This document shows, in pieces, positions 17,623-30,552 of a DNA stretch of 38,300 nucleotides. The stretch is taken from the UHGV virus genome UHGV-0186551. One strand, given 5' to 3'. The notes under the pieces were generated by a model that did no database searches, had not been told where the DNA came from, and saw only the letters and a list, made by a program, of their open reading frames with translations. This DNA comes from a virus. A program made the position numbers and the translations under genes. Numbering within the stretch: the stretch's first letter is position 1; each line of letters begins with the position of its first letter.

Positions 17623-18059
17623 TTTCCGAATAGAGTGCTCATCGGTGATGTTTCAATCTGAATTGCGCCGCCGTCTTTGCCTGTTAGCTCGTGATCAACC
17701 TTGTCGCGCCATTTATCCTTCTGTCGGTTCTTAAGCCAGAAGATGGCAGCGGTTGTATCAGGCGGGTAATACTTCTCAAGCGAAGTTTCGACAATTCTGT
17801 TTTCAATAACACGAATATCGATATCTGGAGCCACGAAGCCCATAGCGCGTTGATAAAGACGATCACTAACTTCTGCATCAGCGACGGCCTTACCCTTTTT
17901 TATGGACTCTAAAAACTCCGGATATTCCGATTTCCAATTGTTGATTGTTGCCTCGCTAACTTCAAAGAAGTCCGCGAGTTCGGCGTCTGTATAGCCCAGC
18001 AAGCACAGTTTGCGTGCCTGTTCGGCATACGCCTCTTGATACTTCGTTGGGCGCGCCAT
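17619..18059 (-). CDS. Terminase small subunit (headful type)
   Basis: 146 aa, helix-turn-helix-like N-terminus, immediately upstream of and overlapping TerL. Confidence 0.75.
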   Translation of the reverse strand: MARPTKYQEAYAEQARKLCLLGYTDAELADFFEVSEATINNWKSEYPEFLESIKKGKAVADAEVSDRLYQRAMGFVAPDIDIRVIENRIVETSLEKYYPPDTTAAIFWLKNRQKDKWRDKVDHELTGKDGGAIQIETSPMSTLFGK

Positions 18060-28398: not shown

Positions 28399-28457
28399 AT
28401 GTAAGTATTTACTTAACAAATAAGAAGTTATGCGCATCAACTTATGCGCGTTGTATT

Positions 28458-28500
28458 CCCGCATTTCGGCGGGAATGAGGACCATGACTGTTAAAGAGCG
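28458..28500 (-). promoter_or_regulatory. nutR (boxA cgctctttaa, boxB hairpin cccgccgaaatgcggg)
   Basis: boxA/boxB read on the - strand between cro and cII; boxB identical to the nutL copy. Confidence 0.75.
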
Positions 28501-28506
28501 GTGTTA

Positions 28507-28701
28507 CTATTTGTTTTTCTTGTTGCTTGGGAAAGGACGAACTTCCTCTCCAATCACACTGCCATCAGGCTTTACCGTAACCATGATGTTACGGCCTGCC
28601 AGAATGGCCTTGCTGATAGCGCACTGGATTACACCAAAGTCACTGGCTGCTTTAGCCTGTCCATGGATTTTGGCGTAATCGGCAAGTGTCATTCGAATCA
28701 T
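28507..28701 (-). CDS. cro: Cro repressor
   Basis: TL.DYA...GQ.K.A.D.GV.Q.AI.KA...GR.I......DGSV..EEV.PFPSNKK as in lambda Cro; ATG at 28701 (track start 28707 is GTG). Confidence 0.9.
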
Positions 28702-28730
28702 ATGCACTCTCCGTTATTAACCATGAACAA

Positions 28731-28799
28731 AGAATACTACAGGTATTCAAAGCAATCAATACTCAGGGTATTTTTAGTTTAAGTACCTTAGCTATTAGA
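28731..28799. promoter_or_regulatory. oR/pR/pRM region: operators near gaatactacaggtattc (28732..28748), aatactcagggtatt (28758..28772), degenerate third (28783..28799); pR -10 28731..28736 and -35 28754..28759 on - strand
   Basis: Inverted-repeat operators sharing consensus with oL sites; pR -35 TTGATT, 17-bp spacer, -10 TATTCT; probable leaderless cI transcript. Confidence 0.65.
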
Positions 28800-28807
28800 A
28801 TTAAGCT

Positions 28808-29524
28808 ATGGAAAATAAAAAATCACTGACGACAGAACAGCTCGAAGACGCTAAGCGGCTTAAGGCTTTGTATGAGTCAAAAAAGAAAGAATTGGGAATA
28901 ACCCAATACTCAATCGCTGATGAACTGGGTATCACCCAAGGAGCGGTAGGGCATTATCTTAATGGCAGAAACGCGCTAAACGTTGAGGTTGCATCTGGTT
29001 TTGCACGATTGTTGCAAGTCTCAATTGCTGATTTTAGCCAGTCAATTGCTGCCAAGGTTGCAGAACAGGCAGAAAGCCTTAAGAGCGATGCCAACGTAAG
29101 GTATGCAGGGGAATACAGAGCAGGAAAGAGGTATCCGGTGTTAAGCAGTATCCAGGCTGGCTCGTGGTGTGAAGCATGCGAACCATACACCATTAAAGAC
29201 ATAGATGTTTGGCTTGAGTCTGACGCGCATATTCAAGGTAATGCGTTCTGGCTTAAAGTGGAAGGTGATTCAATGACGGCACCGGTTGGGTTAAGCATTC
29301 CAGAGGGAACATTCGTTCTTTTCGATACCGGAAGGGAGGCGATCAACGGCAGCTTGGTCATAGCAAAACTTTCTGACTCTAACGAAGCAACATTCAAGAA
29401 GCTGATAATCGACGGCGGAAATAAATACCTCAAGGGACTTAATCCTGCATGGCCTCTCGTGCCAATCAATGGAAACTGCAAGATTATAGGCGTTGCAATT
29501 GAGACAAAACTAAGGCTGGTTTGA
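28808..29524 (+). CDS. cI: CI repressor (N-terminal helix-turn-helix, C-terminal S24 LexA-like autocleavage domain)
   Basis: 238 aa; LTTEQLEDAKRLKALYESKKKELG... and AFWL.VEGDSMTAP as in lambda CI. Confidence 0.9.
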   Translation: MENKKSLTTEQLEDAKRLKALYESKKKELGITQYSIADELGITQGAVGHYLNGRNALNVEVASGFARLLQVSIADFSQSIAAKVAEQAESLKSDANVRYAGEYRAGKRYPVLSSIQAGSWCEACEPYTIKDIDVWLESDAHIQGNAFWLKVEGDSMTAPVGLSIPEGTFVLFDTGREAINGSLVIAKLSDSNEATFKKLIIDGGNKYLKGLNPAWPLVPINGNCKIIGVAIETKLRLV

Positions 29525-29541
29525 TCACGCAAGGGGCGATT

Positions 29542-29910
29542 ATGGTTGGAACCGCTATAGCAAGCTTTTTGGGGATGTTGGCAATCTCAACAATTTACGG
29601 CTTAGCGCATGCTTTTATTGCGAAATCTCTATCAGAAAAAATAAGCCAGGCTTGGGCGCATAGATCTGCTCGTTTCATGATTCTAGTGGTCATAGCAATA
29701 CAAGGGATATCTGCATTTATCCTCTATGGATCAAGCTTATACCTGTTGTATCAAGGCGCGACATTTACGCCTTACACCAGTGATTACGGAACTCTATACG
29801 ATGGTAGTGAAGACATCTCTATGGCTTGGATCGTCTTTGGTTTATCTATGGCCGTGTCTGTTGTAGCAGACATCATTAAGGTAATTCTCGTCTTAACCTT
29901 CGCTGACTAA
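29542..29910 (+). CDS. Multi-pass membrane protein co-transcribed with cI (rex-position cargo)
   Basis: ATG at 29542 with AAGGGG ribosome-binding site, 18 nt after cI stop; about four hydrophobic segments; track start 29521. Confidence 0.7.
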   Translation: MVGTAIASFLGMLAISTIYGLAHAFIAKSLSEKISQAWAHRSARFMILVVIAIQGISAFILYGSSLYLLYQGATFTPYTSDYGTLYDGSEDISMAWIVFGLSMAVSVVADIIKVILVLTFAD

Positions 29911-29999
29911 CCCATAATCCCGGCAGCAATAGCTATCGGGATCCACTTCACATATCCCGCATAAAAAGCACTGAACAAGCAGACACCGAAAAAAAATAA

Positions 30000-30085
30000 A
30001 TATCCTTTGTATTCATTTGCTTATCATTATTTCACCAAAAATAAATACCTTGGGTATTTACACAATAAAATACCTACAGTATTCT
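30000..30085 (+). promoter_or_regulatory. oL/pL: operators atatcctttgtattc (30000..30014), aataccttgggtatt (30044..30058), aatacctacagtatt (30069..30083); pL -35 TTTACA 30057..30062, -10 TATTCT 30080..30085
   Basis: Same operator consensus as oR; promoter geometry mirrors pR. Confidence 0.65.
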
Positions 30086-30130: not shown

Positions 30131-30171
30131 GGCTCTTTAACATTGATGGGATTGTCCCGCCGAAATGCGGG
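30131..30171 (+). promoter_or_regulatory. nutL (boxA ggctctttaa, boxB cccgccgaaatgcggg)
   Basis: boxA followed after a 16-nt spacer by the same boxB hairpin as nutR, upstream of N. Confidence 0.75.
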
Positions 30172-30279
30172 AACCAAAGAGTAGTTGGCTTTGGGGTGAC
30201 GTGAAGTTCAGCTGCACGACGGCAACCGGAAGATAAGCACCCGGCGCGTCACCGCCAAAGTCAATCATCGGAGGTCAAC

Positions 30280-30552
30280 ATGGCAGTAGTCATTACATTT
30301 CTGGCTGACGATAACGCCAGAAATCGCCGCAGAGCACGCAGACAGGCTCAACGTGAGCAGGCAATGCAAGAACAGCGACTGGCGCGAAAAATTGCGCTAA
30401 AGCTCTCTGGTTGCGTCAGAGCAGACAAAGCAGCATCACTCGGAAGCCTTCGCTTCAAGAAGGCAGATGAATGGAGTGGAAGTATTTGCCTGCCAAACGT
30501 AGCCATTTACGCGGCAGGCTACCGGAAATCAAAACAACTGACGGCGAGGTAA
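30280..30552 (+). CDS. N: Antiterminator N (arginine-rich-motif type)
   Basis: 90 aa; ARNRRRARRQAQREQ motif; first gene after pL/nutL; GGAGG ribosome-binding site. Confidence 0.8.
   Translation: MAVVITFLADDNARNRRRARRQAQREQAMQEQRLARKIALKLSGCVRADKAASLGSLRFKKADEWSGSICLPNVAIYAAGYRKSKQLTAR

Follow-up and report, generated by a model that had tools for sequence, protein, structure and literature searches.

The closest described relatives of the locus analyzed here are the immunity regions of coliphages lambda and HK620. The immunity region of HK620 is documented in GenBank AF335538 / NC_002730 (Clark, Inwood, Cloutier & Dhillon 2001, J Mol Biol 311:657), a record that annotates OR1, OR2, OR3, OL1, OL2, pR, pL, nutL and nutR at coordinates equivalent to those of the elements described below. 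We compared both systems with the immunity module of a 38.3-kb viral sequence, the whole of which is referred to as the window. Across 141 bp, the oR of the window is 100% identical to that of HK620; the two also share an identical OL1/OL2/pL core, a Cro with 100% identity and a CI N-terminal domain with 98.9%, placing the operator sequences and the DNA-binding domains of both regulators within the HK620 immunity type. The rest of the window is unlike HK620, with virion and replication genes that resemble those of CUS-3 and other P22-like phages. We read the module as a bistable switch that governs immunity in a lambdoid (P22-like) phage or prophage of the HK620 type and works in a lambda-like manner on a different operator sequence, a reading to which we assign a probability of about 0.9. 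The operators and early promoters of this lambda-like switch are real and well defined, but they are an ordinary finding, because the identical sequence was annotated in HK620 already in 2001; that record and the textbook lambda model cover the operators, the promoters and the logic, which leaves little discovery value. Some Stx2c phages carry the same immunity module, as do 146 of the 5,426 complete E. coli genomes, and a correct operator definition for so common a module helps to predict superinfection immunity between prophages.

The cI and cro genes diverge from oR, approximately 100 bp apart, with three spaced pseudo-palindromic operators between them, as in a lambdoid switch. OR1 (28732-28748, GAATACTACAGGTATTC) is a 17-bp site with a perfect AATAC-N5-GTATT core, centred at 28740 and overlapping the pR -10 element. 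OR2 (28757-28773, CAATACTCAGGGTATTT) is centred at 28765, -43 from the cI ATG, where it shares 3 bp with the pR -35 and directly adjoins the -35 of pRM. OR3 (28781-28797, AAGTACCTTAGCTATTA) is degenerate, with two core mismatches; its centre at 28789 corresponds to -19 relative to the cI start codon, and 2 bp of the site lie within the pRM -10. All three carry the same names in HK620. The centre-to-centre spacings are 25 bp for OR1-OR2 and 24 bp for OR2-OR3. The initial annotation had described oR as two strong sites plus a degenerate third, and this description holds, with OR1 and OR2 exact and OR3 positioned 24 bp beyond OR2.

The pR promoter (28731-28759, minus strand) is composed of a -35 TTGATT (28759->28754), a 17-bp spacer and a -10 TATTCT (28736->28731), and is directed toward cro, cII and the replication genes; the HK620 pR feature corresponds to window positions 28724-28759. 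It matches the sigma-70 consensus at 8 of 12 positions, which is below the threshold of the promoter scanner, and for this reason the scanner listed pL only; pR was confirmed by manual verification. A pRM promoter, which the HK620 record does not annotate, is predicted on the plus strand (28773-28808), with a weak -35 TTTAGT (28773-28778) and a -10 TAGAAT (28796-28801) followed by 6 nt and the cI ATG at 28808. By analogy, its transcript would start at the A of this codon, and the cI mRNA is probably leaderless, since no Shine-Dalgarno sequence precedes it. The same layout of -10 hexamer, 6 nt and ATG is observed before cI in lambda and in the phages Eho49, Pocitis76 and Fostie.

At oL, a second operator cluster overlaps pL upstream of N and a nut site. 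OL2 (30043-30059, AAATACCTTGGGTATTT) matches the motif better than any other site in the window and extends 3 bp into the pL -35, and OL1 (30068-30084, AAATACCTACAGTATTC) overlaps the pL -10, with 25 bp between their centres; both sites, and pL itself, bear these names in HK620. The pL promoter (30057-30085, plus strand) has a -35 TTTACA (30057-30062), a 17-bp spacer and a -10 TATTCT (30080-30085), and drives N (30280-30552, PF25694), which lies downstream of oL. Identical boxB 18-mers are positioned at 30155-30172 and 28457-28474. The shared 17-bp spacer and TATTCT hexamer that had been proposed for the two early promoters are thus present on the minus strand at pR and on the plus strand at pL, and the proposed mirror-image relationship is also borne out: an ungapped alignment of pL with the reverse complement of pR keeps O1 and O2 in step and has 36 identities in 53 positions.

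The exact motif AATACNNNNNGTATT (AATAC-N5-GTATT) occurs four times in the 38.3 kb (28733-28747, 28758-28772, 30044-30058 and 30069-30083), compared with 0.03 copies expected from shuffled sequences, and none of 100 shuffles reached four. All four copies are on the two early promoters, and the scan of the whole window found none elsewhere, so the inverted repeat first described for both promoters is confined to them and not widely scattered. Allowing one mismatch adds a single site, 29999-30013, which adjoins oL. Allowing two mismatches yields 27 matches against 15.3 expected, and these are mostly background; one of them, 28782-28796, lies exactly 24 bp from OR2, while those elsewhere in the window, with the top coding-region sites at 17911 and 25548, were set aside as background. 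When 38,284 positions are scored with a half-site weight matrix, the four strong sites take ranks 1-4, 29998-30014 comes 5th and OR3 comes 8th. Of the 36,783 positions outside the immunity region, none scores as high as 29998-30014 and 2 score as high as OR3. All eight strong half-sites read xAATAC. Natural variants among E. coli prophages fall in the spacers or the central N5 only, never in the AATAC/GTATT arms; at oL this distribution outside the arms gives a hypergeometric p = 0.0075, for a set of closely related, non-independent relatives. The testable operator definition that had been offered for this immunity type rediscovers the HK620 annotation and is not new.

Both regulators belong to the lambda families. 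The cI gene (28808-29524, plus strand) encodes a 238-residue protein with an HTH N-terminal domain (helix 3 QGAVGHYLN) and an S24 autocleavage domain (Pfam HTH_3 and Peptidase_S24), which matches the lambda repressor structure 3bdn over its full length (E 3e-52). Its QAG, GDSMTAP and FKKL motifs align with lambda A111-G112, S149 and K192, the residues expected of a self-cleaving repressor. The cro gene (28507-28701, minus strand) encodes a 64-residue member of the lambda-type alpha+beta Cro family (PF09048, E 3.6e-26; PDB lambda Cro, E 4.7e-19). Its recognition helix includes IQCAISK, with Gln at H1, Ala at H3 and Lys at H6. The published Cro code, in which the half-site is read from its outer edge, assigns A+2 to Gln H1, A+5 to Ala H3 and C+6 to Lys H6 (Hall, Lefevre & Cordes 2005; PMC6649833). 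The Gln/Ala/Lys set of the window Cro agrees with A2, A5 and C6 of its half-site xAATAC. In lambda Cro, the contacts to base pairs 1, 3 and 4 come from Thr17, from the Asn beside Lys H6 and from Ser H2 (PMC6649833), and in the window Cro these three residues are all changed, to Ala, Ser and Cys.

Lambda has the same layout of cro, oR with three 17-bp operators, cI, accessory gene(s), oL and N, and its spacings (OR1-OR2, 24 bp; OR2-OR3, 23 bp; OL1-OL2, 24 bp) are within 1 bp of the 25, 24 and 25 bp of the window. In both phages O1 also overlaps the -10 and O2 extends 3 bp into the -35, and OR3 and OR2 are centred at -19 and -42 from the lambda cI ATG compared with -19 and -43 here. The oL-oR distance, however, is 2.4 kb in lambda and 1.3 kb in the window. 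Identity to the lambda counterparts is 61% for Cro and, for CI, 44% along the whole protein and 52% within the N-terminal domain. The half-sites share positions 2, 5, 6 and 7 (A, A, C, C), whereas positions 1, 3 and 4 differ (TATCACC in lambda, AAATACC in the window). Neither element of imm-lambda specificity, the consensus TATCACCGCCAGTGGTA or the CI helix 3 QSGVGALFN, is found in the window, where helix 3 is QGAVGHYLN, and lambda Cro residues Thr17, Ser28 and Asn31 are replaced by Ala, Cys and Ser. Given these differences in half-site, CI helix 3 and Cro residues, the phage should be heteroimmune to lambda; by analogy, the switch would work as lambda's does while belonging to another immunity group.

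Relatives in other genera carry the same motif together with the same helix. The CI N-terminal domains of Serratia phage vB_SspS_OS31, Hafnia phage Pocitis76 and Erwinia phage vB_EhrS_49 (Eho49) are 66-84% identical to that of the window, and their helix 3 is identical (QGAVGHYLNGRNALN), although the host genera are different and the CI C-terminal domains and flanking genes have diverged. Their records lack operator annotation, but each has three AATAC-N5-GTATT-type oR sites spaced 23-25 bp apart, including one at the OR3 position, and three oL sites; the Pocitis76 OR2 has AATAT arms. OS31 reproduces the window spacings at both oR (25/24) and oL (25/45). The Cro recognition helix of OS31 and Pocitis76 is the same as that of the window, and that of Eho49 differs at H0 and H2. 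Escherichia phage Fostie resembles the window in its lambda-type CI and Cro, its three oR sites (spaced 24/24 bp), and its OR3 at -19. Its CI helix 3, however, is QSAVGHYLN (Gly45 to Ser), its Cro has Ile at H2 where the window has Cys, and its operator consensus is TAGTAC-N5-GTACTA, with T at position 1 and G at position 3. The comparison of CI helices with other immunity groups that had been suggested thus finds that the motif accompanies the recognition helices of CI and Cro and changes where the helix changes, a covariation observed across five phage lineages. Two further comparators were uninformative for the motif: the operators of P13374 (a Stx2a phage) are of another kind, and mEp234 is of lambda immunity.

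The analysis shows directly which sites are present, that their placement is not random, how the promoters are laid out, that the proteins are homologous to those of lambda and that motif and recognition helix covary. In the searchable literature we found no binding, footprinting or transcript-mapping data for HK620-type immunity, and the functional steps that follow are for this reason drawn by analogy with lambda; binding, occupancy order, activation and looping are inferred from the geometry and the covariation. CI dimers are predicted to bind the 17-bp pseudo-palindromes, with the consensus (A/G)AATAC(C/T)-N3-(G/A)GTATT(T/C). CI at OR1 and OR2 would cover both the -10 and the -35 of pR, and CI at OL1 and OL2 those of pL, and in this way would silence the early lytic genes. 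At OR2 (-43), next to the weak pRM -35, CI probably activates a putatively leaderless cI transcript, while OR3 (-19, over the pRM -10) is the likely target of Cro, or of CI in excess, in turning off cI. Cro, a predicted lambda-fold protein, is expected to read the same half-sites as CI. Induction would proceed through RecA-stimulated self-cleavage of CI, which retains the Ala-Gly site and the catalytic Ser and Lys. A third oL site, probably 29998-30014, may contribute to oL-oR interaction over a long range, the role played by OL3 in lambda. The lambdoid immunity reading as such is upheld by the gene context, by the CI and Cro homologies and by the HK620 annotation of the same bases.

The placement of the third oL site is uncertain. 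The sole candidate with support in the sequence is 29998-30014 (AAATATCCTTTGTATTC), which has one core mismatch and is annotated in the HK620 record as the terminator tIMM, OL3 being placed elsewhere. Three sites had been claimed at oL; OL1 and OL2 are strong, but the third is only partly secure, because its centre is 45 bp from that of OL2 and not approximately 20-25 bp away; the OL2-OL3 interval in lambda, Eho49 and Pocitis76 measures 20, 21 and 29 bp, respectively. This atypical spacing leaves an appreciable, though minority, chance that oL has two functional operators only and that 29998-30014 plays no part in regulation, being either a remnant in decay or a match by chance. Erosion would fit the pattern of half-sites, since the homologous OS31 site retains only its left half, the right half not being conserved, and the window copy carries its mismatch in the left half; two window sites in coding regions also score nearly as high (12.8-13.1). 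Against this two-operator reading, no background position reaches the score of 29998-30014 in the uniform-background matrix, a site survives at the homologous position and the same 45-bp offset from OL2 in a Serratia phage, and every other relative examined has three oL sites. The window's site is moreover invariant in 10 E. coli relatives, whereas five columns are polymorphic within the 28 bp toward OL2. A spacing of 45 bp would also preserve the helical phase of 24 bp with two added turns.

It is less probable still that the HK620 record is right in both respects, with OL3 at 30021-30037 (TTATCATTATTTCACCA) as the third operator and the repeat at 29998-30014 as the tIMM terminator. The annotation says so, and its distance of 22 bp from OL2 resembles the 20 bp of lambda and the 21 bp of Eho49. 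However, 30021-30037 has a half-site matrix score of -17.7 (rank 23,938 of 38,284) and contains a polymorphic column, and every register across 30012-30035 was scored with none exceeding -7; we rejected it as an operator on sequence. The tIMM assignment does not hold up as an intrinsic terminator either: the hairpin stem is all A/T, the region folds as RNA at -0.8 kcal/mol (z +0.44), no better than shuffled sequence, and a terminator scan found nothing there, while as an operator the same repeat ranks 5th in the window with no background position equal to it. Recognition of 29998-30014 as the third site would correct a probable mis-annotation of both OL3 and tIMM in the reference record. A very remote alternative is that the inverted repeats bind another factor or reflect promoter-associated symmetry with no repressor role. 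Against it, the sites correspond to those of lambda in where they lie, how many there are, how they are spaced and how symmetrical they are, motif and recognition helices of both CI and Cro covary in five lineages, the half-site fits the Cro code, and the module holds no other DNA-binding gene.

A broader proposal combines two elements: that the HK620 record mislabels oL, the true OL3 being 29998-30014 with a 45-bp offset kept in E. coli and Serratia phages for long-range oL-oR repression of pRM, and that AATAC-N5-GTATT with QGAVGHYLN represents one specificity across Escherichia, Serratia, Hafnia and Erwinia phages. Taken jointly, these are tentative, with odds somewhat short of even. If both were true, cross-immunity would extend across genera, and the single Gly45-to-Ser change, as in Fostie, would retarget the repressor to TAGTAC. 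Lambda, the HK620-type phages and Fostie form a natural series of related CI/Cro pairs in which half-site positions 2, 5 and 6 are kept and positions 1, 3 and 4 differ, and this series would be well suited to tests of helix-turn-helix specificity rules.

A lambdoid immunity region is present in the window, in the reverse of the conventional lambda orientation. The replication genes and cII come before cro on the minus strand, followed by cro itself (28507–28701, minus strand; Pfam Cro family PF09048), the cro–cI intergenic region (28702–28807), cI (28808–29524, plus strand; Pfam HTH_3 and Peptidase_S24), a small membrane-protein gene named hkaS in coliphage HK620 (about 29521–29910), a non-coding region and N (30280–30552; Pfam N-peptide family). 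Window CI aligns with lambda repressor over its full length (3bdn, E 3e-52), with its Ala-Gly cleavage site and catalytic Ser and Lys kept, and window Cro matches lambda Cro (E 5e-19). The hkaS product is small and hydrophobic, and its gene lies between cI and oL, the position of lambda rexAB; a Pfam search with the product returned no significant match. In lysogens this gene is probably transcribed together with cI; it is a candidate for an exclusion or defence function. Window N is presumably like phage 21 N in its C-terminal half and unlike it in the arginine-rich N-terminus; the HK620 record calls its own N similar to those of H-19B and 21.

The initial annotation had proposed AATAC-N5-GTATT as the operator consensus, and a scan of the whole window confined it to the two early promoters: AATACNNNNNGTATT has exactly four copies in the 38,300 bp (28733, 28758, 30044 and 30069) against 0.03 expected from shuffles, with no exact copy scattered elsewhere. 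Allowing one mismatch added a single site (29999–30013), while two mismatches gave 27 sites versus 15.3 expected, mostly background, with 28782–28796 among them. When 38,284 window positions were scored with a weight matrix built from the four perfect sites, taken as eight half-sites, these four headed the list (19.7–22.2 bits), with 29998–30014 fifth and OR3 (28781–28797), the degenerate third site proposed at oR, eighth. Only two positions outside the immunity region score as high as OR3, and none as high as 29998–30014. Chance placement of OR3 is unlikely because it lies exactly 24 bp from OR2 (about 1.6e-4 at 3-bp tolerance, by our own arithmetic). In E. coli prophages, oR carries substitutions at 28703 (upstream of the cro start codon), at 28751 (between OR1 and OR2) and at 28764 (within the central N5 of OR2), with none inside the AATAC or GTATT arms.

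The promoters pL (TTTACA-17-TATTCT, 30057–30085) and pR (TTGATT-17-TATTCT, 28759–28731, minus strand) have in common the 17-bp spacer and −10 hexamer originally claimed for them; pR was missed by the promoter scanner because it has only 8/12 consensus matches. Their description as mirror images is apt, since pL and reverse-complemented pR align gap-free with 36 of 53 positions alike and with O1 and O2 in register. In lambda and the window alike, the −35 hexamer overlaps O2 by 3 bp, the −10 lies within the promoter-proximal half of O1, and OR3 is centred at −19 from the cI ATG. Centre spacings in the window are 25 bp for OR1–OR2, 24 bp for OR2–OR3 and 25 bp for OL1–OL2, compared with 24, 23 and 24 bp in lambda, and the OR2 centre is at −43 from the cI ATG rather than −42. 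Predicted pRM has a good −10, TAGAAT (28796–28801); the cI ATG follows after 6 nt, and no Shine-Dalgarno sequence precedes it. Lambda pRM has the same arrangement (TAGATT, 6 nt, ATG), and its transcript is leaderless. By this analogy the window cI transcript from pRM is predicted to be leaderless, and the arrangement recurs in the Erwinia phage Eho49 (TAGAAT), the Hafnia phage Pocitis76 (TACAAT) and the Escherichia phage Fostie (TAAAAT).

The mechanism we propose is lambda's own. CI on O1 and O2 would occlude pR and pL, and from OR2 it would activate pRM, giving the leaderless cI transcript; binding of Cro or surplus CI to the weak OR3 would turn pRM off, and RecA-stimulated CI autocleavage would lead to prophage induction. 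A literature search on this immunity type found no experimental proof of any binding step.

The 1.9-kb immunity segment is 98.8–99.1% identical to HK620, HF4s, mEpX2, HK630, HK140 and some Stx2c-converting phages; in HK620, oR is 100% identical over 141 bp and the OL1/OL2/pL core is also identical. The HK620 record (AF335538; Clark et al. 2001) has features OR1–3, OL1–3, pR, pL, pRE, tR1, nutL and nutR, with OR1, OR2, OR3, OL2 and OL1 at window 28732–28748, 28757–28773, 28781–28797, 30043–30059 and 30068–30084, respectively. That record annotates the same operator sites, so those in the initial annotation are, as an operator definition, a correct rediscovery rather than new. The observation is confirmed and its interpretation as a lambdoid immunity switch supported, though the switch was on record as an annotation before and its mechanism is conventional. 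The modest additions made here are the cross-genus reach of the operator/helix pairing, with Fostie as a one-residue neighbour specificity, the predicted leaderless pRM, the probable correction of two oL labels in the HK620 record (below) and the match to the Cro recognition code. Of 5,426 complete E. coli genomes, 146 hold both this oR (at 95% identity or more) and this oL. Identical 18-nt boxB-like hairpins, TCCCGCCGAAATGCGGGA, at 30155–30172 (plus strand) and 28457–28474 (minus strand) are the counterparts of nutL and nutR in the record.

The rest of the window is unlike HK620, and its virion genes resemble those of CUS-3 and other P22-like phages. For the virion/late half (1–25000) the best matches are CUS-3, phiv205-1, vB_EcoP-720R6 and similar P22-like phages, at about 95–97% identity over 46–63% of the query. 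As this half is not HK620-like, the window holds an HK620 immunity module in a mosaic genome, which is the usual lambdoid mosaicism.

Of the three operators claimed at oL, OL1 and OL2 are perfect and the third is only probable. The OL3 of the HK620 record (30021–30037, TTATCATTATTTCACCA) is rejected as an operator on its sequence, scoring −17.7 (rank 23,938 of 38,284), and the weight-matrix scan found no nearby register better than −7. The candidate site, 29998–30014 (AAATATCCTTTGTATTC), is the sole one-mismatch operator match in the window; it has one mismatch and a 45-bp offset from OL2, which is atypical. It is unvarying in ten relatives, with five polymorphic columns between it and OL2, a distance of 28 bp; over oL, variation affects 0 of 51 operator columns versus 6 of 43 columns outside the operators (hypergeometric p 0.0075), a test that is only suggestive because the relatives compared are themselves interrelated. 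A site with the same offset is present at the homologous position in the Serratia phage OS31, though only its left half-site is kept. We consider 29998–30014 to be the probable OL3, at slightly better than even odds. The HK620 record labels bases about 29994–30024, around this inverted repeat, as a terminator, tIMM, which we reject as an intrinsic terminator since its stem is all A/T and its RNA (−0.8 kcal/mol) is no better than shuffled (z +0.44). Both the OL3 and tIMM labels of this reference record are therefore probably to be corrected.

Directly after the hkaS stop codon is a GC-rich hairpin (29917–29942; −15.3 kcal/mol, z −3.1) that has no U tract and is unvarying in 10 relatives; it may mark where the cI–hkaS transcript really ends, or stabilise that transcript, in place of the annotated tIMM. 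Between candidate OL3 and OL2 lies a 28-bp AT-rich stretch (30015–30042), partly conserved with OS31, in which a weak IHF-like or UP-element-like sequence, TATCATTATTTCA, is seen by eye; it may be a pL upstream element.

The Cro 'evolutionary code' pairs Gln at recognition-helix position H1 with A+2, Ala at H3 with A+5 and Lys at H6 with C+6 (PMC6649833). In window Cro the helix, IQCAISK, places Q, A and K at these positions, and all eight strong half-sites read xAATAC, so that A2, A5 and C6 are present; at the sequence level, Cro and its half-sites agree with the code. The window half-site AAATACC differs from lambda TATCACC at positions 1, 3 and 4 only. Lambda Cro contacts bp 1–2 through Gln H1 and Thr17, bp 3 through the Asn adjacent to Lys H6, bp 4–5 through Ser H2, and bp 6–7 through Lys H6 (PMC6649833). 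Thr17, Asn31 and Ser28 are Ala, Ser and Cys in window Cro, whereas the Gln, Ala and Lys are kept. Window CI keeps lambda Gln33, Gln44, Asn52, Asn55 and Lys4, with Ser45, Gly46 and Ala49 replaced by Gly, Ala and His. In the lambda repressor–operator complex, bp 2 and 6 are contacted by Gln44, Asn55 and Lys4, all kept here, and bp 4 by Ser45; in the bp-4 part of the half-site, Gly46 and Ala49 pack against thymine methyl groups through van der Waals contacts. Carrying this contact map over to the changes in window CI would provide a candidate mapping, which we offer as a lead.

Searching phage genomes by tblastn with Cro and the CI N-terminal domain identified four further lineages. In OS31 the CI N-terminal domain is 84% identical and the recognition helices of both CI and Cro are identical to the window's; its oR sites GAATACTTTGGGTATTT, CAATATGGTGGGTATTT and TAATAGTGACGGTATTA are spaced 25 and 24 bp apart, and its three oL sites 25 and 45 bp. 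Pocitis76 has an OR1 equal to the window's, an OR2 with AATAT arms, TAATAGCGATAGTATTT as OR3, and three oL sites spaced 25 and 29 bp. Eho49 CI shares 66% identity and has the same helix 3; OR1 and OR2 match AATAC-N5-GTATT perfectly, OR3 (TAATACCTGTGCTATTA) carries a single arm mismatch (spacing 24 and 24 bp), and the three oL sites are all perfect (25 and 21 bp). In Fostie, CI helix 3 (QSAVGHYLN) is one residue off the window's (Gly45 to Ser), Cro has Ile for Cys at H2, and the operators are TAGTAC-N5-GTACTA. Since OS31, Pocitis76 and Eho49 keep the helix and AATAC-type sites while Fostie changes both, these sequences indicate that the operator motif tracks the recognition helix across genera, an altered helix going with an altered motif.

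The annotated OS31 cI begins 16 codons upstream (L015, 2453–2500) of MESKKSL, the start that lines up with those of the window and lambda; the annotated start is probably wrong because the extension crosses OR2 and OR3. In Fostie (L016), a lambda-type cro at about 2255–2420 on the minus strand (MNQITLGEYVKEHGQ..., by visual reading of the reverse complement) is apparently unannotated, and a spurious plus-strand ORF (2322–2504) is annotated across cro and oR.
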